DNA from: Pseudomonadales bacterium
GTDB lineage: Bacteria; Pseudomonadota; Gammaproteobacteria; Pseudomonadales; UBA7239
Direction: 5' to 3'
Length of the DNA stretch: 64,000 bases
NCBI GenBank assembly: GCA_028280345.1
Contig: JANQLY010000023.1
Coordinates: forward strand, 196,201 to 260,200
The position numbers and the translations under genes were made by a program. A model generated the notes under the pieces. That model did no database searches, was not told the DNA's origin, and worked only from the letters and a program-made list of their open reading frames with translations. Numbering within the stretch: position 1 is the stretch's first letter; each line of letters opens with the position of its first letter. Of this stretch, positions 53,038-63,703 are shown piece after piece.

Positions 53038-53114
53038 GCGCTGGTAGCTCAGTTGGATAGAGTATCTGGCTACGAACCAGAGGGTCGGGGGTTCGAATCC
53101 TCCCCAGCGCGCCA
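53038..53114 (+). tRNA. tRNA-Arg (anticodon ACG)
   Basis: Cloverleaf: acceptor GCGCTGG/CCAGCGC; D-loop AGTTGGATA; anticodon loop CTACGAA; T-loop GGTTCGAATCC; encoded CCA. Confidence 0.85.
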
Positions 53115-53480: not shown

Positions 53481-54320
53481 TCACAAACCAGAAACAACCT
53501 CAACAAGCTCCAACTCGTAAACCAGAGTTGCTGTTGCGGGTATCTCCCCACCTGTAATACCCGGCAAACCATAAGCCATATTTGCAGGTACAAATAGTTG
53601 CCAGTGAGATCCCTCGCTCATCATCGGTAGCACTTCTTGCCAACCGGGAATCACTTCTTCCATTGCAAAGGTCGATGGAGCTCCTCTTTTATACGAACTA
53701 TCAAATTCCTGAAGTTGATTTTTATCATCAACAAAACTAACGGCATAATGTACACGAATCTTGCTATCAGCATTCGGCTTATTGCCACTCCCCTGCTGCA
53801 CAATCCTGTATTGCACACCACTCGAGATTTGCTGAATACCATCTTTCTCTTTGTTTACCTGTAAAAGCTTTTCGCCAGCTTCCTCGATAGCAGAGTTTTT
53901 AATATTGTGCTTTTCTTGTAGATCGCGTTGCTGTTTCTCATTGTATTCTTGTATGGACAACTTGAGCTGATGCATGGTTCTCTGCAGCTCCATTTCGCTC
54001 ATGCGAAAGACTTTTTTATTTTGTACGTCTTCAATACCCAACAACACAAAATCTTTATCCAGCTGCAAAACTTCTACAGGAACCCCGTTTGCCAAATTAA
54101 TGCCCAATATATAAGAAATCTTCTCTTCCTCTGTCATAGGCGCTCTGTTTATTGCCGCACGAGTTATATCTGTTGATGCGTCTAATGCACCCGCACTCTG
54201 CACTTCAGGCCCTGCACGAGGCACACCTTCTGCCTCCTCTTTACCGCAAGCTGCTGCAAGGAAACATAAGACCAATAGAATGGTGTAACGAATCGCAGAA
54301 CCCAAACACAGTATTTTCAT
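53481..54320 (-). CDS. fkpA: FKBP-type peptidyl-prolyl cis-trans isomerase lipoprotein (FkpA/Mip-like)
   Basis: Lipobox LAAAC. N-terminal dimerisation helix. C-terminal FKBP domain (...GGEIPATATLVYELELVEV). 279 aa. Confidence 0.75.
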   Translation of the reverse strand: MKILCLGSAIRYTILLVLCFLAAACGKEEAEGVPRAGPEVQSAGALDASTDITRAAINRAPMTEEEKISYILGINLANGVPVEVLQLDKDFVLLGIEDVQNKKVFRMSEMELQRTMHQLKLSIQEYNEKQQRDLQEKHNIKNSAIEEAGEKLLQVNKEKDGIQQISSGVQYRIVQQGSGNKPNADSKIRVHYAVSFVDDKNQLQEFDSSYKRGAPSTFAMEEVIPGWQEVLPMMSEGSHWQLFVPANMAYGLPGITGGEIPATATLVYELELVEVVSGL

Positions 54321-54323
54321 CGA

Positions 54324-55136
54324 TTAGCTCCCTATATCAGCCTTAAACTGGCCACCTTTATAATCTCCATCCAGCGGCAGTGGTTCGGCTGGTGGCACGT
54401 AGGGAGGCTCTTCACCCTCTGCTTCATGGATAACAGCGACTGCATCCAGATCAAGACCCGCACTACCTACTGTTGGGTAAGGGTCATAAATAATATGGGG
54501 GCCACCAACAACAGCCGGATAGTCATCATAGGCAGAGCCATCACCGACTATATCGATAAGCTTCACATGTGTAATCGCACTAATATCCAGCCCAGGTGTT
54601 CCTGTCAGGACATTCAGATCAAAGGGCGTTCCCTCCCCTCCTTTATATTTACTTGCATAGCCCGTAATGTTGGTTGGATCAACAACCCCAAAACCGCCGA
54701 CCGGGCTGGCAGTAAAAGAAATATTCGGATAGCGTGTAAAATTGACACCATCGGAAGAAACCTCGACCCATGCAATCTCTAAAAAAGTATCACTGAACGA
54801 GTTCTCAAAAATCAGAAAGTCAGCACCGGGGCCATCTGTAATAGGCTTATTAAATGTCAAAGTAATTTGCCCGCCTCTACCAAGTGAAACAATATCGTAA
54901 GTAAAACCCTGGTTATTACCATCCGAGTTACCTGCCAGCCCCAATGCTTTTTGCGGTGTCTGCCAGGTAGCGTCTACATTAGTTCCCATATTGTAGTTTT
55001 CATAACCCGTTGCCCAAGCAACAATACTGCTATCATTCCAGGCCACAGCCGTCGAACCGGGCTGCCCCGCAGCTGGCGCATAGGGGCCCGCATAAAGTGA
55101 CTGAACGAAGACGCCCGAAAGCATACCAATCAGCAT
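54324..55136 (-). CDS. secreted hypothetical protein (beta-rich, Gly/Asp-rich)
   Basis: Start set at [16 protein letters not shown] (signal peptide). Sits downstream of the TonB-dependent receptor. No recognised family. The tracked ORF extends to 55319. Confidence 0.45.
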
Positions 55137-55218
55137 GACACCCCAGCGCTTGCTTTTAATCCGGTTTTGCACTGTTTTCTGATAGTTCACAAAAGCCTCC
55201 TCATCGTTATAAGCAGGG

Positions 55219-57282
55219 TTAGTAATAAGAATATTTAATCCCTGCCATAAAGTTTCTTTCTGGCATCGGGTAAAACGTTCCACTGTAGCCTGAAGTTGAA
55301 TAAACCTCATCAAAAACATTCAGGACAGAGAGGAAGATTTCTACTTCATTTTCCTGCCATGACAGTTTTATATCTGTGACTCTATAGGCATCCAGTTTTG
55401 GATAAGTGCTGTTGTTAAAATCATTACCATCAAAACGCTCATCTGTATAACTGGTTGAAATAGCCCCATAAAAAGATGCCGTGGGCTGCCATTCAAGGCC
55501 TATGGTTGCATTAACCCGTGGCACCAGGGGAATAAAGGTTCCACTTTCGATAAAGGCAGCATTTATATATCCTGCTTTCACATAAGCGGATAGTGAATCC
55601 TCTAAAAAACCGTATTGAATATCCAGTTCAACACCATCGCGACGTGTTACCTGATCAGCATTTCGATTAACAGCCAGCCTTGTTACCGGGTCAATCCCGT
55701 AAAGAATTTCATCTTCAATTTTTATAGTAAAAAGCGTCACACTACCATCAAGGTCTCCATGCTCAAATCGCACACCTATATCCCAGTGCTTGCCGGTTTG
55801 CGGCGCGAGGTCTTCATCAGACAACACCAACTCATCAACATTTGGGTTTCGGAAACTTGTGGCGTATCCAACAAAGCCATCTATATTTTCACTAATTTGA
55901 TAAACAGCCCCAACTTCAAATGCCGTGTTATTCCAGGTTTCATCTCGGTGAGCAGTATTGAGCCACTCACTTCTACAATTAGTTTCCACCGGGATCGGGA
56001 ACAGAAAAGGCGGGATGATCATATCAACATAATCACATACCCTCGTCAGATTCTCTTCGTCCTGCTCCAACTCGGATTTATCAAAACGCCCCCCTGTACT
56101 AATACGCCAACCTTCACCGTTGAGCGCCCAATCTGCGAAAAATGCCTGATTGGATAAATCACCTTTTTTTTCCTGGCTTTGATCCAGAACATTCCGACCA
56201 TTACGATATTGCTGGTAGTCTGTGATAAATGCTTCAAATCCATAGCTGAACTCACTCTCAAACTCACCTAGCGAGTCATAACGACTGAGAATCAAATCAC
56301 CGCCGTAACGTCGGTCTTCAATCGATAGAATCTGATCCTCTACAGGAGCTGTTGGCGTATACTGAAGCAATGTGTCACTAAAGCGTTCCCGATAATACAA
56401 ATGACTATCAACAAGCCAGCCAGATGGCGAGGTGTAATCTGAGTGCCATTGAATTAAACGCTCCTTGCTTTCACCACCGTCTTGCGGTGCAGTCGTCGAT
56501 TTTCGTTGAGCACCGGAACCTTCGTAATTCTCACGACTGACTGGACCGGGCAAGCCAAATTCATCACGGTGATTTTTAAACATCAGTCCATGTTCAAACT
56601 GATCATTGATTTGATGCTTTATACTAAACAGAACGTCCTGTTTGGATAGATATCCATTATCTCTGTAACCATCGGTGTCATAGTCAGCAAGATTGACTTT
56701 GAAAGTCAGATTATCATTATCTGTATTGACGTAATTAAAACGCAGATCATGGGTATCGAATGATCCCGCCGCCGCATAAACATCCAATGCCGCCTGATTG
56801 CTTTTGGTAATAATATTGACCACGCCACCCACAGCACCATTACCATAGCGCACTGTTCCTCCACTACGAACCACTTCAATACGCTCTATTTGAGAGATTG
56901 AAATAGTCGATAGATCAGGACCGGACAGGTCGTCGTTATTCAAACGTACGCCATCAACGAGCACAAGCACATTACTACTACTGGTATCACCCATACCACG
57001 AATGTCGATGCTGCTATATTTATCATTTCCTGTAAACGAGCGCAGATTGATATTAGCTTCCTGAGATAGCAGCTCTGACAACTGGGTAGCCGTTGAGCGC
57101 GCAATATCATCCGAGTCGATAACTGTAACATTTTTTGGGATCTGGCTTTCCGGGGTCTGACGCACACCAGTGACAACAATCGTATCCAACTCAGTCACTT
57201 CATTTTCAGCGAAACTGTTTGTGCTTGTCAGTAGCATTGCCATCATTCCACCAAAAATTAATTTACAGCTATAAATTTGCAC
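55219..57282 (-). CDS. TonB-dependent outer-membrane receptor
   Basis: Signal peptide. TonB-box-like DTIVVTG. Plug plus 22-strand barrel. C-terminal aromatic residue. 687 aa. Confidence 0.8.
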
Positions 57283-57385
57283 ACCCGGGACTTAAACCAA
57301 ATTAACTTTATAAAACTGAAACGCTCGCATTCTCGCGTTAATGCAAAACGGCAAGATCGCCGATAACTAGCGCTTTTCCCGACTG

Positions 57386-57419
57386 CCCGCAATACCTGGC
57401 ACTAGCCAGGTATTGCGGG
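57386..57419. other. 15-bp-arm perfect hairpin between the beta-propeller gene and the TonB receptor gene
   Basis: cccgcaatacctggc acta gccaggtattgcggg, with no adjacent U-tract. Confidence 0.4.
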
Positions 57420-57429
57420 TATCAGATAA

Positions 57430-59604
57430 TTACTGATTACTCAGGATCAGTTGACCAGTGTTAATCCCTAACCATTTCGCGCCACCAACTTTAGAGCCAT
57501 TCTGCAGCTCAATCAGCGCCACGTTACCAGAACCGTCCTGCAAAGCGATATCCACATCACCATCGGCATCCGCATCAAGTACATTTTTCACATCGTAGGC
57601 AATGGTAGTGAGCCAGCGAGCGGTGACCTTGATTCCGTTCTCGATTTCAACCACCTGCACAGAACCGGTACCACTGTTTTGTTGGATCAGATCGGCATCA
57701 CCGTCGTTATCAATATCACCGACGGCCAGTACCGCAGTACCCGCCCAGGCACCGAGCCAACGACCCGTGACTTTAACACCGTTCTCAAGCTCAACCACCA
57801 TTACATCACTACCGCTGGCGCCAGCCATGAAGATGTCGTCATCACCGTCGGCATCCGCATCACCGGCTCCGACTACAGTACGGCCACTCCAGACACCGAG
57901 CCAACGGGCAGCGACTTTAGCGCCATTTTCCATTTCAATGACATTGACATTGCCGGAGGCATCCTGGGTCACGATATCGTCATCACCGTCACGGTCGATA
58001 TCCGCTGTCGCAGCTACTGTGTGACCGGCCCATTGTCCAAGCCAGGCGGCAGACTGCTTCGCACCGCTTTCCATAATCCAGACAATAACATTGCCCGAAC
58101 CATCACCGAATACCAGGTCGGCATCACCGTCACCATCAAGGTCACCAGTAAAGCTCAACGTGTAACCACTTTGAGCACCGAGAGAAACTACCGACTCCCG
58201 TGCACCGTATTGCATTACCCAGAGGATAACCTCACCAGTACCGGCATTCTGGAACAGCAGATCTGAGTCGCCGTCATTGTCTACATCCGCATTGCCGAGC
58301 AGACTCGCAGTGCTGTTGGTACCGAGCCATACCGCGCTATCTTTATTCGCATCCTGCATGGTCCACAGCACAACGGAGCCAGAGCCATCCTGGAACAGCA
58401 TATCGCCATCGCCATCCGCATCAACGTCATTGGGCACATCCAGGTCACTGACCGTCGGATCTGTACCAAGAACGTATTCCTCGAGGTTGGTGACACCGTC
58501 ACCATCCTGGTCATCCCCGCTATCGTCAACCAACGGATTAAGGCCATAGTTGTTCTCCCAGCTATCGGGCATACCGTCGTTATCATCGTCGGTATCTACT
58601 GTGTCAGGGTAACGATCCCCATCAGTATTCACACCCGGAATAACTTGATAAATACCATCCTGGTCAGAAAAATAGGTTTGCCCTTGATATAAGCGTACCG
58701 ATGTCATGCGATTAGAGGATTGCGCGGTAATTTCAGCCGTACCCAGATAATCGCCGCTATCATCCATATAAAAAGTCACCAGGTCCGAAGGCGCACCAAA
58801 AGAAGTCAGAGTCACCACCAGGTGGCCATTACTATCAAACTCCATGCCGGTAGCACCCGCGTGACCAAAGCTATTGAAATCAATAATCTCATGACCTGCC
58901 GGGTCTGTCAGCGGCGTACCCGCAATGGCCAATGCGACTTCAGCAGCAGAGTATTTGTGAATTTTTCCAGCACTGTAACCGGAGGCATAATACAGATTAC
59001 CTGCTGCATCAAAAGCAATAGGGCCGGAAGGACTGCCCATAAAGCCCAGGTCAACTAAAGGCCCGGTTAAATCACCATTACCATCCAATGCAGAGTAATA
59101 CAATTTGGCATCCCAATTAACATCTGCTCCGGCAATAAACAAACCATTATTATGAATCGTATATCCCCAGGCATTACTTTGCTGAAACACCTGTGTAGCC
59201 GCACCACCCCCAATGGAGTCATATTTAAACAAGGCGGTGAGACTACCATCGTCAAAATAAATGTTATCCCCATCACTCAAAACCCATGTACCCGAGTAGG
59301 AAGCTGCCGTATAGATAGCACTGAGCGTATTACCATCAAACTTATGGACTTTTAAATCCTGGGCAAAATTGTTATCCCCTTCCATCCAATATAAGTCACC
59401 GCCACTACTCCAGTTAAAACTGGCAACGTTTTTACCAACAAAAGGGTTTTGGTAATAGGTTAATACATTACCGCTCGTGATAGCGGCCAGTGAATTACTA
59501 GCCATCAGAGAAAGAAACAAAAAGCAGAATATTTTGTTTGACCAAAATTGCTTGAGTGAAGTTTGCTTACTATCGTTTGTAGATAGAAAAATCATTGAAG
59601 CCAT
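57430..59604 (-). CDS. secreted protein with N-terminal beta-rich domain, TSP3-like Ca-binding repeat and 8 FG-GAP repeats (beta-propeller)
   Basis: Signal peptide (KIFCFLFLSLMASNSLAA). DTDDDNDGMPDSWE...DQDGDGVTN TSP3-like motifs. Eight DxDxDGDxD + VLW/VIW FG-GAP units. Start set at ATG 59604; the tracked ORF starts at TTG 59652. Confidence 0.6.
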   Translation of the reverse strand: MASMIFLSTNDSKQTSLKQFWSNKIFCFLFLSLMASNSLAAITSGNVLTYYQNPFVGKNVASFNWSSGGDLYWMEGDNNFAQDLKVHKFDGNTLSAIYTAASYSGTWVLSDGDNIYFDDGSLTALFKYDSIGGGAATQVFQQSNAWGYTIHNNGLFIAGADVNWDAKLYYSALDGNGDLTGPLVDLGFMGSPSGPIAFDAAGNLYYASGYSAGKIHKYSAAEVALAIAGTPLTDPAGHEIIDFNSFGHAGATGMEFDSNGHLVVTLTSFGAPSDLVTFYMDDSGDYLGTAEITAQSSNRMTSVRLYQGQTYFSDQDGIYQVIPGVNTDGDRYPDTVDTDDDNDGMPDSWENNYGLNPLVDDSGDDQDGDGVTNLEEYVLGTDPTVSDLDVPNDVDADGDGDMLFQDGSGSVVLWTMQDANKDSAVWLGTNSTASLLGNADVDNDGDSDLLFQNAGTGEVILWVMQYGARESVVSLGAQSGYTLSFTGDLDGDGDADLVFGDGSGNVIVWIMESGAKQSAAWLGQWAGHTVAATADIDRDGDDDIVTQDASGNVNVIEMENGAKVAARWLGVWSGRTVVGAGDADADGDDDIFMAGASGSDVMVVELENGVKVTGRWLGAWAGTAVLAVGDIDNDGDADLIQQNSGTGSVQVVEIENGIKVTARWLTTIAYDVKNVLDADADGDVDIALQDGSGNVALIELQNGSKVGGAKWLGINTGQLILSNQ

Positions 59605-59734
59605 GATATCCCCTTGCGCCCACCGCGCTGTGTTTAACTCAGGCAGGAGCAAAGAAATAGGGCTTCAGGAAAAGCGGTAAAAAAACCACCGAAGACCTGC
59701 ACTTTGCGTTACCCACCGTAACTCGTTGCATATG

Positions 59735-59870
59735 TCATTAAAGGCCGGTCTCCGGACTTATGAGCTGCAAAAACTCGCAGGTTTCTCACTTACCGTTGCG
59801 GGGGCAGTGCTGGATTCTCACCAGCTTCCCGTTTCACTGGATAACTCCAGCACCTTTAAGGCGCGCAAAG
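59735..59870 (-). promoter_or_regulatory. cobalamin (B12) riboswitch
   Basis: Minus-strand RNA reads ...CUUAAAGGUGCUGG...GGGAAGCUGGUGAGAAUCCAGCACUGCCCCCGCAACGGUAAGUG...AAGUCCGGAGACCGGCC(UUUAA). This matches the conserved GGGAA/GGUG/AAUCC/CCCGC core and the B12 box, with P1 closure. It lies ~85 nt upstream of the beta-propeller gene. Confidence 0.7.
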
Positions 59871-60171
59871 ATACCACACTTCCATACAAATTCGCCAGGT
59901 AGATACCGTGAAGTTGGCCCGGATTACTAGAAAAGAGAATTTCTTTTTTAATATCAATAGCTTAAGGAGGTGTTTTTTTAAGCTCCCGCCACCATTGCTG
60001 CCAGCACAGGGGTCTCCATCTACTCTCAAATCAGATTTTTTTGCAGTAAACGGCACTTATCACATCCCGCCGCCACCCTGAAAACGGGTATTTCCAACAG
60101 GACACAGGGTTAAGGCTCGGCTCGTTATACCCAAAATAATCCCTGTCACAAACCTAAATACGCAAAATATT

Positions 60172-61089
60172 TTGCAGCGAATCTCGGATTTTAATCCACA
60201 AAAAGCTGAGGCTATTCAAGTCATCGTCGCCGGGGAAGTCATTCCAGACATGCATACCACTCCTCCTGATCAATCATTCTCTATTTTTTGGAACAGAGAA
60301 CGAGAAACCAGGATGCACGTTTACGCGGTCTATGAAAGAATACGCAGGCATAGAGTTACAAATTTATCTACATCCAAAATGATTTCTTTTCCTGAATTAA
60401 ACATGTCTTTAGAGGCATGCGAAACTTTTACCCGTTTATCCTTTGATCGGCCTGTCAACGTCTTAAGCTCTGCGGTATTAAATGGCGGTTTCACTAAAGC
60501 CTCTCAAATTATAAACCTGAAGGTAGATAAACACGGCAGCAGCAACGAAGCACCGCAGATTAGTTTGCAGAAATTCTGTGATCAGCAATGTTGGCCCGGC
60601 ACTGCTGTCGGCATGATGACAGCAGCCTCAATGAAGTCTTTGCGCCATTCATTTTTATCAGAGCAAAATATTGCATTGGCCACATTCGTAACGGCAGGAC
60701 TTAGTAATTTGCGTCGCATTGGTGACAAAGCGGATCAGCAGACAATAAGTGTAGAAGAAGAAATAGAAGCAGGCACAATTAACATTATTCTGGCAACTAA
60801 TGCGGACTTAAATACGGCCGCAATGGCGGAGGCGTTAATGATGGTGACCGAAGCCAAAACAGCCGTTATGCAGCAAATGAATCTGCCGAGTCCGATATCC
60901 GGCGCTGTGGCAAGCGGTACCGGAACAGATTCAGTGGCTATTGTCAGCACAGCACAGGCACTCCCATTGCAATACTGCGGTAAACATGTGCGCTTTGGTG
61001 AGCTGATCGGTAAACAAGTGATTGAGAATGTCAGCGCTGCAGTTGAGGCCTGCTTGCAAAGTGAAAAAGATACAGCCGCTCAGGGGTGA
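60172..61089 (+). CDS. cbiZ: adenosylcobinamide amidohydrolase CbiZ family
   Basis: CbiZ-like core (VNVLSSAVLNGG...GTGTDSVAIV). True start may be downstream (MISFPEL, ~60379). Confidence 0.6.
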   Translation: MQRISDFNPQKAEAIQVIVAGEVIPDMHTTPPDQSFSIFWNRERETRMHVYAVYERIRRHRVTNLSTSKMISFPELNMSLEACETFTRLSFDRPVNVLSSAVLNGGFTKASQIINLKVDKHGSSNEAPQISLQKFCDQQCWPGTAVGMMTAASMKSLRHSFLSEQNIALATFVTAGLSNLRRIGDKADQQTISVEEEIEAGTINIILATNADLNTAAMAEALMMVTEAKTAVMQQMNLPSPISGAVASGTGTDSVAIVSTAQALPLQYCGKHVRFGELIGKQVIENVSAAVEACLQSEKDTAAQG

Positions 61090-61865
61090 GAATCCTTTAT
61101 ACGATACATCGGAGTTACGCTGACACCTTCGCCTTCACAGTTAACCAGACTCTTAACACCGTAAACCTGAGCAATATTTTCGTCACTGAGCACTTCCACA
61201 GGTGTTCCCTGAGAAAAGACTTCGCCATGATTTAACAGGTAAAGCTTGTCGCAAAAGCGTGCTGCGAGGCTCAAGTCATGTAATACCACTACCCCGGCCC
61301 GCGTATCTGTTGCGTGGTTTCGCAGCAATTCCATAACGTGTAGCTGATGATAGGGATCCAATGCAGCAACCGGTTCATCAGCAAAAATAATTTGTGGCTC
61401 TGTGGCAAAAATTCGCGCCAACATAACCAGGGTTTGCTCACCGCCGGATAGCGTGGTGACTACGCGATTTCGATAGGCCTTTGTTTCAGTTAATGCCAGT
61501 GCAGCCTCAACTTTTTCCTTATCTTGCTCACCCATAGACTGCCACCACTGCTGGTGGGGTAAGCGACCCAGCTCTACAACTTTTTCTACGGAGAATGGCC
61601 AGTGCGCCCTGGCACCCTGCACAAGATAGGCAAGAGTTTTTGCTCTCTCACCAGGGCTTATTTCCCGAAGAGTCTTGCCGTTGTAAAAAATATCGCCCCT
61701 ATCTGCCTTCAATACACCGGTTATCAACCGTAATAAAGTACTTTTTCCCGCACCATTTGGGCCAATTAGGCCCACCAGTTCCCCCGCGGCCACCTCAATA
61801 TTGAGGTTCTTTAACAAAGGAATGCTGTCAATACTGTAATCAAGTGAATGGGCTTTTAACAACAT
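61080..61865 (-). CDS. btuD: ABC transporter ATP-binding protein (BtuD/FecE family)
   Basis: Walker A GPNGAGKST. LSGGE signature. Walker B IFADEP. 261 aa. Confidence 0.8.
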   Translation of the reverse strand: MLLKAHSLDYSIDSIPLLKNLNIEVAAGELVGLIGPNGAGKSTLLRLITGVLKADRGDIFYNGKTLREISPGERAKTLAYLVQGARAHWPFSVEKVVELGRLPHQQWWQSMGEQDKEKVEAALALTETKAYRNRVVTTLSGGEQTLVMLARIFATEPQIIFADEPVAALDPYHQLHVMELLRNHATDTRAGVVVLHDLSLAARFCDKLYLLNHGEVFSQGTPVEVLSDENIAQVYGVKSLVNCEGEGVSVTPMYRIKDSHP

Positions 61866-61871
61866 AGCAGT

Positions 61872-62882
61872 TTAGACCAGCGTGTTTCGGTTTTTCAAAA
61901 TCAAGTAAAGAAAGAAAGGCCCACCCACGAGAGCAGTAATCACACCCAGCTTTATTTCTCCGCTAGTAGATATTAACTGCACACCGAGATCGGCGATCAA
62001 TAGTAGACAGGCACCGCCAAGAGCACTGCTTAATAATAATTTTCTCGGCTCGTAGGCTACCAACGGGCGTAGCAAGTGGGGAATAACCAGACCAATAAAG
62101 CCAATATTACCGGATACGGAAACTGCAGCCCCAACGCTGGTAGCAACTCCAAGCACCAATATCCAGCGTAAACGTTTAACGGCAAAACCCATTGAGATAG
62201 CTGTCTCTTCCCCCAGTGTCAGTGCATTGAGAAATCGACCACAGTAGAGAATCATTATCCAACCTGGCAACATAAACGGCAGAGCAATTGCAACATCATT
62301 CATGCTGCGATTTGACACAGAGCCTAATAGCCAGAAAATAATTTCCTGCATGGCGTAGGGATTGGGTGCGAAGTTCAATGCCAGTGCGATCAGAGCACCA
62401 CCAATGGCGTTAATAGCAATACCCGCAAGGATCAGTGTTACGGTAGAACTGTTATTGCCTGTTAATAGAAAAATAATAATGACCGAAGCAAAAGCGCCAA
62501 TTAAACCGCCCAATGGCAAGGCAAACCAGGCCAGACCGGAAAACCCGAAATAAAATACAATAACAGCACCGAGGGCGGCACCGTTTGAAACTCCGATAAT
62601 ACCCGGTTCCGCCAACGGGTTCTTTAACAAACCCTGCAATGCTGCACCTGCTATGCCAAGGGTGGCGCCGATAAATAAAGCCAATAGTGCTCGAGGCAAT
62701 CGGATATCAAACAAAATCAATGCATCAATACTATTCTGATCATTAAGGAAATCCGCAAAGGCTTTATGTAGTGAAATATCGACAGAGCCAATATTCAGAG
62801 ACATGACAAAGACGAACAGTAGCAACCCCGCTAACAGAGGTAATAACATTACTGAAGCAAAGTTGAGAGGTTTCATATTCAA
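61872..62882 (-). CDS. btuC: FecCD-family ABC permease (BtuC-like)
   Basis: 336 aa with ~10 TM helices. FecCD family. Confidence 0.8.
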   Translation of the reverse strand: MNMKPLNFASVMLLPLLAGLLLFVFVMSLNIGSVDISLHKAFADFLNDQNSIDALILFDIRLPRALLALFIGATLGIAGAALQGLLKNPLAEPGIIGVSNGAALGAVIVFYFGFSGLAWFALPLGGLIGAFASVIIIFLLTGNNSSTVTLILAGIAINAIGGALIALALNFAPNPYAMQEIIFWLLGSVSNRSMNDVAIALPFMLPGWIMILYCGRFLNALTLGEETAISMGFAVKRLRWILVLGVATSVGAAVSVSGNIGFIGLVIPHLLRPLVAYEPRKLLLSSALGGACLLLIADLGVQLISTSGEIKLGVITALVGGPFFLYLILKNRNTLV

Positions 62883-63703
62883 CGCTTGTCCGCCAGATAA
62901 GCTACTACTTCAGCAGTAGCAGGCCCCGCACATGCGCGCAGCCGCGAAGGAACAAACAGGCGCTTGTTATCCGGTACCATATGTTCTAATACCGGGTGGC
63001 GAATATAAGCACTGGCCAGTGAATTTGAATTGTATACGTGATTATCAATTTGCAAAAAGTCCGGCTTGCTGGCAATTAATATCTCCAGAGAAATTTGCTG
63101 AAACCCGGAAATACCGGATTCGGCAGATAAGTTACGGAAACCGGCATGGTTCAATACATCGTTTTCCAGAGTATCTGCACCAATTGTGTAGCCGTTTGGT
63201 GAGTAGATCACAATGGATTGCATAGCTTTATGGGCATTACGCCGTTGCGCTTCGGCAATGGTAGCATCCATCTCGCGTATCAGGATTTCAGCTTTTTGTT
63301 CCGCACCAACCAGTTTTCCAAAGCTTCTCAGATGACTGCGGATTTCATCGATAGAGCGAGGCAGATCAACCAACTCAACGCGATAATCCAGAAGTTTTAG
63401 CATCCTGACCGTATCGTATGCGGCAAATGCACTACCCACGACCAAATCCGGCTTAAAAGCAATAACCTCTTCAACCATAATATGATTGATTGGGATATCA
63501 CCAACATGCTCTGCCATATAAGACATTTGCCGATCTGTTGATGTGTGAGTTAATGAAGCAATGCGTTCTCTTTCCACCATCATCAGCAGCAGTTGGTCGG
63601 TACAAAGCCCCAAAGAAACAATGCGCTGCGGCACCTGCGCATTCGTTAAAGCGGATGCGAAGACGAGCAAGATAAGCAATAAAAAAGGCATGACAGACTT
63701 CAT
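62879..63703 (-). CDS. btuF: periplasmic cobalamin/siderophore-type substrate-binding protein (BtuF-like)
   Basis: Signal peptide. Class III PBP fold (RIVSLGLCTDQLLLMM). Forms an operon with btuC/btuD. 274 aa. Confidence 0.7.
   Translation of the reverse strand: MKSVMPFLLLILLVFASALTNAQVPQRIVSLGLCTDQLLLMMVERERIASLTHTSTDRQMSYMAEHVGDIPINHIMVEEVIAFKPDLVVGSAFAAYDTVRMLKLLDYRVELVDLPRSIDEIRSHLRSFGKLVGAEQKAEILIREMDATIAEAQRRNAHKAMQSIVIYSPNGYTIGADTLENDVLNHAGFRNLSAESGISGFQQISLEILIASKPDFLQIDNHVYNSNSLASAYIRHPVLEHMVPDNKRLFVPSRLRACAGPATAEVVAYLADKR

Follow-up and report, generated by a model that had tools for sequence, protein, structure and literature searches.

Few microbes make vitamin B12 and many need it, so that competition for it shapes marine, soil and gut communities. 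Proteins that capture B12 at the cell surface and pass it to a receptor have so far been a Bacteroides story. In the BtuB-BtuG-BtuH(-BtuJ/K) relay of B. thetaiotaomicron (PMC10404256, PMC8941943, PMC13616437) a B12 riboswitch, a TonB-dependent receptor, a propeller and a BtuH-type protein go together, the propeller being BtuG. Reports of BtuH are limited to Bacteroidota and three Firmicutes (PMC8941943; PMC13616437), and publications up to September 2026 assign it almost exclusively to Bacteroidota (PMC13616437). A further group of B12 binders, DUF4465/BtuJ, consists of secreted beta-sandwich proteins, often with PEP-CTERM, that are found in B12-transport neighbourhoods across many phyla (bioRxiv 10.1101/2025.08.21.671476). 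The E. coli-type btuB system puts outer-membrane B12 uptake behind an RF00174 leader in which the ribosome-binding site is sequestered, and the inner-membrane step is carried out by BtuFCD.

We analysed a 64,000-nucleotide stretch of DNA from a Pseudomonadales bacterium (hereafter the window), which contains a locus that resembles both systems and differs from both. As in the Bacteroides relay, it has a B12 riboswitch, a TonB receptor, a propeller and a BtuH-type protein, with a BtuFCD importer nearby; unlike that relay, it has an FKBP gene in place of DUF4465, and its host is a gammaproteobacterium rather than a gut Bacteroides. As in E. coli, the leader is RF00174, here with the ribosome-binding site sequestered in a predicted fold, but the gene next to the riboswitch is not that of the receptor, and the locus also encodes two secreted accessory proteins and a PPIase. 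Taken as a whole, the locus is probably a riboswitch-controlled corrinoid capture-and-import operon, similar in working to Bacteroides BtuB/G/H but with components that are different or only very distantly related, and with corrinoid binding as a prediction. In the literature searched we found no description of B12 capture proteins of this kind outside Bacteroidota, in agreement with a preliminary description of this DNA that knew of no such riboswitch-controlled accessory protein in gammaproteobacteria; nor did the searches bring up anything relevant on BtuH outside Bacteroidota, or joining PEP-CTERM with cobalamin riboswitches.

The riboswitch-headed cassette

The features of the locus are as follows.

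53481..54320 (-), FKBP-type PPIase with FKBP_N and FKBP_C domains and the lipoprotein signal LAAAC
54324..55190 (-), H270, a secreted protein of 270-288 aa, predicted BtuH-like beta-sandwich
55219..57282 (-), divergent BtuB-like TonB-dependent receptor with Plug and barrel domains
57430..59604 (-), 724-aa secreted protein (ORF and translation, Pfam, homologue alignment, AlphaFold2, Foldseek)
57433-58428 (-), aa 393-724 of that protein, seven FG-GAP/VCBS-like repeats (repeat count)
aa ~331-392 of that protein, Asp-rich TSP3-like linker (PF18884, E 3e-4, below cut-off)
58615-59484 (-), aa 41-330 of that protein, predicted six-bladed propeller, 'N-dom'
59596..59725 (-), expression platform (RNA fold of 59880-59590, terminator-like site, sequence)
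59726..59872 (-), cobalamin riboswitch aptamer, RF00174 (cmscan, 89.7 bits, E 7e-21, full model)
60172..61089 (+), CbiZ, adenosylcobinamide amidohydrolase of corrinoid salvage/remodelling (PF01955, 9e-51)
61080..63703 (-), BtuF-, BtuC- and BtuD-like importer (Peripla_BP_2, FecCD, ABC_tran)
61080-61865 (-), BtuD-like ATPase
61872-62882 (-), BtuC-like permease
62879-63703 (-), BtuF-like periplasmic binding protein

The minus-strand B12 riboswitch of the preliminary description was confirmed by cmscan: the match exceeds the gathering threshold of 31.5 bits by a wide margin, extends over model positions 1-189 and has the B12 box within a full aptamer. Alignment with five orthologous riboswitches showed that the window copy lacks ~47 nt of a peripheral extension present in those loci. 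In the expression platform a terminator-like site scan found a weak hairpin with a U-run at 59691-59675, and RNA folding placed the Shine-Dalgarno sequence AAGGGGA and the AUG at 59604 in paired positions inside a predicted long hairpin (about 59668-59596); control of translation and/or termination is thus the mechanism suggested by the fold.

The order riboswitch, secreted propeller protein, BtuB-like TonB receptor, 270-288-aa secreted protein and FKBP lipoprotein recurs in five independent relatives (L001, L002, L004, L006 and L008) whose flanks are otherwise unrelated, each cassette being preceded by an RF00174 match of 96-115 bits. The riboswitch-propeller-receptor order proposed for checking in orthologous loci was thus kept in five independent contigs, and the placement of the riboswitch before a non-receptor gene is conserved rather than accidental. 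The FKBP gene starts 3 nt past the H270 stop and is kept after H270 in L001, L002, L004 and L008; this fourth cassette gene had been absent from the preliminary description. On the other side lie cbiZ and the btuFCD-type importer, as had been claimed. The cbiZ gene is transcribed away from the riboswitch operon and does not have the riboswitch in front of it, and the permease scores 237 bits with the BtuC model PRK03784, below its cut-off.

The receptor, correctly described as following the propeller gene, has 687 aa from a GTG start (672 aa, beginning MMAML..., in the public call). In NCBIfam it matches TonB-B12 TIGR01779 best, with 164 bits where the cut-off is 599.7, and it scores 127 bits with the BtuB equivalog PRK10641 (cut-off 836); these two models rank best although both scores lie far below equivalog cut-offs, in which the receptor differs from E. 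coli BtuB. E. coli BtuB is also its best PDB sequence match (1.4e-20), mostly over the plug.

One could argue that only the first gene is under the riboswitch, and that the receptor, H270 and FKBP genes make up a unit of their own, independent of B12, whose imported substrate is a different one, for instance a siderophore or haem. The window does have a gap of about 150-190 nt before the receptor gene, with a weak terminator-like hairpin at 57362-57349, and haem and siderophore subfamily models score the receptor comparably. Against this, the promoter/terminator scan found sites no more often than expected by chance (terminator-like sites: 7, against 6.1 in shuffled sequence), the propeller and receptor genes are just 29-52 nt apart in four relatives, other lineages that have no propeller gene at the locus carry the riboswitch immediately ahead of a receptor-H270 or H270-receptor pair, and BtuB is the top match of the receptor in both NCBIfam and PDB. 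We consider such a split very unlikely, and the four genes are presumably co-transcribed.

The propeller protein and its FG-GAP domain

The first gene had been described as encoding a 740-aa secreted protein, which is the length of a TTG-initiated ORF starting at 59652; from the ATG at 59604 it has 724 aa, and its secretion stands, with a signal peptide over aa 1-40 ending ...SNSLAA/ITSG. Inspection of the translation found no lipobox cysteine at this end. The thrombospondin-type-3-like, Ca-binding Asp motifs that had been reported correspond to the TSP3-like linker, an Asp-rich segment whose PF18884 match remains below cut-off, and the FG-GAP repeats, given as eight, number seven: D-x-D-x-D-G-D repeats (n=7) run through residues 393-724, where FG-GAP_3 (PF13517) scores 44.6 bits against a gathering threshold of 26.9.

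Conservation with homologues is confined to aa 1-~390. The N-terminal domain had been noted only as beta-rich, which it is, but the emphasis was misplaced, as this domain is itself a predicted propeller and, unlike FG-GAP, the conserved element. An AlphaFold2 model of aa 41-330 (pLDDT 87, pTM 0.86) is all-beta, with about 25 strands forming six blades. Its best Foldseek matches are NHL-type, Pizza6 and PknD propellers, and the best PDB sequence match of the family profile is the six-bladed DFPase, so that we predict a six-bladed NHL/DFPase-like propeller for the conserved N-terminal ~290 aa. This distinguishes it from Bacteroides BtuG, whose PF16819 (DUF5074) propeller is seven-bladed. The fold is a generic one and resembles neither BtuG nor BtuK in any specific way.

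Homology of N-dom to BtuG was rejected by Pfam, hhalign, profile-against-PDB and Foldseek comparisons. No window protein matches PF16819 in Pfam; none of 36 family members scanned has a significant Pfam match, the single one that hits PF16819 doing so at E 0.18; hhalign of the family against the PF16819 protein of L107 gives a probability of 5%; and the top 50 Foldseek matches of the N-dom model, the kind of structure search that had been proposed for BtuG-like propellers, include no BtuG chain. What the gene shares with BtuG is its position, adjoining the receptor gene in a riboswitch-headed cassette as BtuG adjoins btuB. BtuG is further characterised by capping BtuB stably and by binding B12 with femto- to picomolar affinity.

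The parallel to BtuG had originally been drawn through the other end of the protein, with the C-terminal FG-GAP propeller as a BtuG-like corrinoid binder handing B12 to the receptor. FG-GAP_3 repeats are genuinely present, and seven of them would make a seven-bladed propeller, the blade number of BtuG (fold: PMC13616437). Yet the five closest homologues (405-423 aa), all within the same riboswitch cassette, all lack the FG-GAP module; the module recurs at 53-62% identity at the C-terminus of unrelated large secreted proteins (P0009, on the same contig, P0007 and P0008); and it has no similarity to PF16819. The segment coding for it also has a GC content of 53.8%, against 45.4% for the remainder of the gene, a difference for which its Asp/Gly-rich composition is a possible cause. 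On these comparisons the FG-GAP domain is a lineage-specific C-terminal add-on, and a BtuG-like role for it is highly improbable.

H270 and the BtuH domain

The third gene had been treated as a bystander, a 331-aa secreted hypothetical at 54324-55136. It does encode a secreted hypothetical protein, but those coordinates hold 270 aa; the public call has 288 aa, from a start that gives the signal peptide a proper basic n-region. H270 turned out to be the most informative component of the locus, with a remote BtuH-like domain. The mature end produced by signal cleavage is ...SLYA/GPYAP, and the translation contains no lipobox. No Pfam domain was found in H270, nor a PEP-CTERM, its C-terminal tail being PLDGDYKG.

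Among known structures the predicted fold of H270 is nearest to the globular domain of BtuH proteins of the BT1956/BT1488/BT1490 type: two independent methods, searching 350,542 and 48,164 chains, both give the first two places to the only BtuH-domain entries, two in number. The link in sequence is more distant. The sole PDB sequence-profile match of H270 falls within the BtuH domain, as placed by the domain layout of 8BLW (PMC10404256), with an E of 0.056 over one motif only, and a broader alignment with Bacteroidota members (E 0.14, one motif) did not improve it. Comparison by hhalign with a BtuG1 H-domain homologue gave a probability of 73% (E 3e-5, 34 columns), a rough value because that domain was stitched from a frameshift-ridden contig. 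H270 thus differs from Bacteroides BtuH in being too remote for BLAST-level searches, the sequence-homology criterion of the describing paper being BLAST E<=0.03.

The invariant H270 motif F-E-N-S-F...L-E aligns with ...ILGNA... of BtuG1-H. We compared it with the corrin-contact and Ca/Na-site residues of BtuH2 (N399, F401, E406, D522, S582 and E584); from their published spacing, the BtuH2 sequence itself lying outside the alignment, we infer that the motif Asn may be the counterpart of N399, and a C-terminal S/D-x-D motif is only suggestive of a BtuH-type site. Together, structural models and profiles suggest that H270 is distantly related to the domain with which Bacteroides BtuH binds B12.

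Assignment of H270 to DUF4465/BtuJ was rejected, since 0 of 27 members match PF14717 even at an E of 10; no BtuJ chain occurs among the Foldseek top 50. The window operon is likewise without a DUF4465: none was found among window proteins, and jackhmmer from validated DUF4465 reached no window ORF.

Distant loci and proposed function

Both families extend far beyond the close relatives. The N-dom family comprises 86 cluster representatives with E<1e-10, which usually have 330-350 aa and a PEP-CTERM, and RF00174 or RF01482 lies directly upstream of the N-dom gene, on the same strand, in 14 of 17 distant loci. H270 loci have a B12 riboswitch upstream in 57 of 80 species genomes from many phyla, an adjacent same-strand TonB receptor in 48, a DUF4465/BtuJ-like gene, a partner known from the Bacteroides relay, in 57 (where the two genes are adjacent), and at least one B12-uptake signal in 78. 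Several riboswitches of distant phyla escaped the model R1, and Rfam recovered eight more, so that counts from R1 alone are underestimates; six loci of Verrucomicrobiota that share this gene set (L042, L048, L051, L055, L056 and L072) showed no riboswitch within up to 8 kb upstream. One of the two families has >3,600 detected homologues, with matches in at least 578 species genomes.

The two families also occur with each other. An H270-family gene directly follows the N-dom gene in L090-L092, L096, L105, L043 and L083, and, as in BtuG1 of Bacteroides, propeller and BtuH-type domain are sometimes joined, within one reading frame in L093, L095 and L100-L102 and by direct domain fusion in L094. 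Unlike the Bacteroides lipoproteins, neither the propeller nor H270 is a lipoprotein; anchoring elsewhere would be by the PEP-CTERM or T9SS tails that H270 relatives carry, and here neither tail is present.

Such tails would be accounted for if the accessory proteins were not corrinoid binders but envelope or exopolysaccharide scaffolds organising or protecting the receptor, H270 being a CBM32/discoidin-type glycan-binding module and the propeller an adhesin. This is unlikely, given the tight coupling of both families to cobalamin riboswitches (57/80 and 14/17 loci) and to experimentally validated B12-binder families (DUF4465 in 57/80 loci, BtuG in L085), and the first rank of the two BtuH-domain structures by both methods, of 350,542 and 48,164 chains. 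This comparative context lends strong support to the general idea of the preliminary description that, as in Bacteroides, secreted accessory proteins feed a B12 receptor.

In the capture-and-import operon that we favour, sufficient intracellular cobalamin would act through the riboswitch to repress four genes for outer-membrane corrinoid acquisition. The receptor would be a divergent BtuB-type TonB-dependent transporter with one secreted partner encoded before and one after it. The first partner, a putative six-bladed propeller of a previously unnamed family, may either bind corrinoid too or dock on the receptor for hand-over; its calcium-type linker and seven-bladed FG-GAP extra, seen in this genome only, probably serve surface attachment. 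The second, the beta-sandwich H270, would bind corrinoid outside the cell. The FKBP lipoprotein probably aids folding or assembly of the beta-rich envelope proteins, and the neighbouring BtuFCD importer and CbiZ would complete uptake and remodelling.

With two uncharacterised secreted families linked to B12 switches in many phyla, surface capture of B12 may not be confined to gut Bacteroides. These unannotated families are concrete candidate corrinoid binders, suggest a tie between B12 scavenging and exosortase/T9SS surface display, and could explain many 'hypothetical' genes of B12 regulons. A broader proposal, which we put forward tentatively and at somewhat less than even confidence, is that N-dom and H270 form a widespread, lipoprotein-free corrinoid-capture system of environmental Gram-negatives, displayed via PEP-CTERM/exosortase, T9SS or a tail of the window type, in which the propeller, though not homologous to BtuG, has come by convergence to play its part, capping or loading a BtuB-type receptor. 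If so, multi-protein extracellular B12 relays would be general in marine, soil and sediment bacteria rather than a speciality of gut Bacteroidota.

Two distant loci serve as examples. Methyloversatilis has riboswitch, H270, DUF4465 (Pfam 6e-48) and receptor, in that order; in a Flavobacteriales MAG (L085) the riboswitch is followed by a T9SS-sorted protein, an H270 that ends in a T9SS tail, the receptor, BtuG (PF16819, 1e-23) and a BtuF-like protein.

The riboswitch-headed locus

The window holds a single cobalamin riboswitch aptamer, at 59872-59726 on the minus strand, which matches the full Rfam model at 89.7 bits (gathering score 31.5) and so bears out the B12 riboswitch of the preliminary description. 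Compared with the orthologous riboswitches of L001, L002, L004, L006 and L008, loci bearing homologues, the aptamer is short by ∼47 nt in the peripheral P6-extension region and reaches its score nonetheless. An ATG at 59604 lies ∼120 nt 3′ of the aptamer. In the predicted fold of the leader the Shine-Dalgarno sequence and AUG are within a long hairpin, and a weak hairpin with a U-run falls right 3′ of the aptamer; as a prediction only, the leader resembles the usual proteobacterial B12 ‘off’ switch. The surrounding genes are:

59604-57430, minus: 724-aa open reading frame, ATG start with AAGGGGA upstream
57282-55219, minus: TonB-dependent receptor
55190 or 55136 to 54324, minus: H270, a secreted protein without a Pfam domain
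54320-53481, minus: FKBP-type PPIase with a lipobox, starting 3 nt past the H270 stop
other side of the riboswitch, plus: cbiZ
other side of the riboswitch, minus: btuF-C-D-like importer, placed there with cbiZ by the preliminary description also

The riboswitch and first four genes are here termed the cassette; the remaining window genes are ordinary chromosomal context (e.g. topoisomerase, transhydrogenase, FimV). The top NCBIfam and PDB matches of the receptor are BtuB, but far under the equivalog cut-offs. With the NCBIfam BamJ model (cut-off 100) the FKBP lipoprotein (53481-54320, minus) reaches 87 bits; BamJ being a beta-barrel-assembly accessory protein, this sequence match hints at a role in receptor assembly. 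A tRNA gene (53038-53111, plus) adjoins the end of the window cassette, and the L001 cassette begins right past a tmRNA gene flanked by integrases (L001 8980-9332 and 7521-8786).

On the contigs of the five nearest homologues of the first gene, the order of first gene, receptor, ∼280-aa protein and FKBP is kept where the contig is long enough, with 29-52 nt between the first two genes in four of the five. RF00174 (96-115 bits) lies directly 5′ on the same strand in 5/5, so that the proposed riboswitch-propeller-receptor order holds in relatives. The flanks are otherwise unrelated, some of them including genes for aldehyde dehydrogenase and P450; differing in every relative, they are consistent with a cassette that moves as a unit.

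A mosaic first gene with an unnamed propeller

The 740-aa length given previously belongs to an upstream TTG, and we count seven D-x-D-x-D-G-D repeats rather than eight FG-GAP repeats; these follow a TSP3-like ‘MPDSWE..GLNPL’ linker in the C-terminal part. The only full-length database match is the window's own protein. Its five nearest homologues (405-423 aa; 57-66% identical along the aligned region and up to 76% in the N-terminal domain) span just the N-terminal ∼330 residues, an Asp-rich linker and a short tail. The TSP3 and FG-GAP module (57433-58428) is also C-terminal, at 53-62% identity, on the unrelated large secreted proteins P0007, P0008 and P0009, the last encoded outside the window on the same 308,945-bp contig; towards the N terminus these unrelated proteins have RCC1, H-lectin or other FG-GAP domains. 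Because it is absent from the five homologues and recurs on unrelated secreted proteins, the FG-GAP propeller, previously likened to BtuG, is a shuffled, lineage-specific add-on and not the conserved B12-linked element. The module, with its shared ending ...GGAKWLGxNTGxxKLF, behaves like a common C-terminal anchoring or sorting domain.

The conserved part is the N-terminal domain (aa 41-330), here N-dom, modelled confidently (pLDDT 87, pTM 0.86) as an all-beta fold of ∼25 strands. The PDB structures closest to it are NHL-type propellers with six blades (Pizza6, PknD, TRIM/Brat NHL), with virginiamycin B lyase likewise near the top, and the sole PDB sequence match of the family profile is the six-bladed DFPase. 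By exhaustive profile search the family numbers 86 cluster representatives (E<1e-10), most of them 330-350 aa long; a PEP-CTERM tail ends 32 of 36 members. Since none of those 36 has a significant Pfam match, no BtuG chain is among the top 50 structural neighbours, and hhalign puts the probability of a match to a PF16819 (BtuG-family) protein at 5%, N-dom is an unnamed propeller family and not a BtuG member. RF00174 or RF01482 lies directly upstream in 14 of 17 distant N-dom loci (∼30-37% identity; L089, 53%), the remaining three having <500 nt of upstream sequence.

H270, a BtuH-like partner

The third gene, H270, is the key one. More than 3,600 homologues are detectable, with best matches typically 55-64% identical and a PEP-CTERM end usual, and no Pfam or NCBIfam family is above threshold. 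Its model (pLDDT 81; core >90) was searched with Foldseek against 350,542 chains, returning 8blw_B (E 2e-4) and 7biz_B (E 3e-3) as best; a second, independent method ranked the same two first. These are the only two entries with a BtuH B12-binding domain, one being BtuH2 and the other BtuG1 with a C-terminal BtuH domain (PMC8941943, PMC10404256). The family profile's only PDB match (E 0.056) falls within the BtuH domain (residues 426-472), and hhalign pairs the family with a stitched BtuG1-H homologue at 73% probability (E 3e-5; over the motif SLGxGGxITLxFxxPIxNxxGxDFxxxxN).

Across the whole set of fetched loci, profile searches find N-dom and H270 coupled in three arrangements. The H270 gene directly follows the N-dom gene in L043, L083, L090-L092, L096 and L105; the two share one stop-free frame, separated by a PEP-CTERM and then a signal-like segment, in L093 (499-2430), L095 (6926-8773), L100 (3212-5146), L101 (6491-8737) and L102 (6635-8824); and L094 has a direct H270-to-N-dom fusion. 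These arrangements echo the propeller-BtuH fusion of Bacteroides BtuG1. In the shared frames the propeller's PEP-CTERM is complete and the H270 domain has its own; each looks like a polyprotein that would require two processing events. Cobalamin riboswitches are tandem or repeated in L094 (4630-4810, 4982-5104), L097 (1453-1642, 3006-3176) and L095 (6581-6795, 10967-11176), in some of these with a second one separating the propeller gene from the gene that follows.

At least 578 H270 relatives turned up in a scan that took a single genome for each species. The best 80 loci cover Gamma- and Betaproteobacteria, Desulfobacterota, Myxococcota, Planctomycetota, Verrucomicrobiota, Kiritimatiellota, Lentisphaerota, Spirochaetota and Bacteroidota. 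A cobalamin-class riboswitch is upstream on the same strand in 57 of them (our own model and Rfam combined; Rfam confirmed 10/10 of the weakest own-model matches rechecked), a same-strand TonB receptor within 1.5 kb in 48, an adjacent or fused DUF4465/BtuJ-like gene in 57, and BtuC/D/F-like genes in 26; 78/80 carry one or more of the four. DUF4465 is a B12-binding family by experiment (bioRxiv 10.1101/2025.08.21.671476; PMC13616437). Methyloversatilis has the order riboswitch, H270, DUF4465 (Pfam 6e-48), receptor, and a Flavobacteriales MAG riboswitch, T9SS-sorted protein, H270 with T9SS tail, receptor, BtuG (PF16819, 1e-23), BtuF-like protein. Verrucomicrobiota loci L042, L048, L051, L055, L056 and L072 carry DUF4465, receptor, H270 and BtuCD, with no riboswitch at the Rfam gathering score within ≤8 kb of upstream sequence; their regulation may differ. 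In the Desulfobacula MAG locus L040 a c-di-GMP-I-GGC riboswitch (RF03167, 64 bits, 794-877), instead of a cobalamin riboswitch, lies directly 5′ of a DUF4465-like gene (895-1728).

A proposed corrinoid acquisition unit

The locus is most economically read as a B12-repressed outer-membrane unit for corrinoid acquisition, for which we infer corrinoid binding, surface location and co-transcription of the cassette. BtuH-like H270 would capture the corrinoid; the propeller would also bind it, or dock on the receptor and hand it over; the divergent BtuB-type receptor would import it; and the adjoining BtuFCD and CbiZ would complete transport and remodelling, the FKBP lipoprotein plausibly being an envelope folding helper. 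Riboswitch-controlled TonB receptors with surface B12-binding helpers are known in Bacteroides, and the proposed system is of the same kind. Here, however, the propeller is six-bladed and non-homologous, the protein related to BtuH is so distant that BLAST-level searches would miss it, the capture proteins are not lipoproteins, and the phyletic range is different. A September 2026 review still places BtuH predominantly in Bacteroidota, with three Firmicutes besides (PMC13616437), and our literature search found no published description of the N-dom or H270 family. This B12-capture variant offers good experimental tractability.

The anchoring device varies by host (PEP-CTERM, T9SS tail) and in the window is neither; speculatively, the TSP3 and FG-GAP module and a P-L-x-G-x-Y-K-G tail may take this role in the window lineage. 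There the tail, P-L-x-G-x-Y-K-G-S-x-I, ends both propeller and H270 homologues (54324-54400; P0002-P0006, P0124, P0126, P0128), and because it stands at the exact place of PEP-CTERM in relatives from other lineages, it may act as a so far unrecognised signal for sorting or docking.
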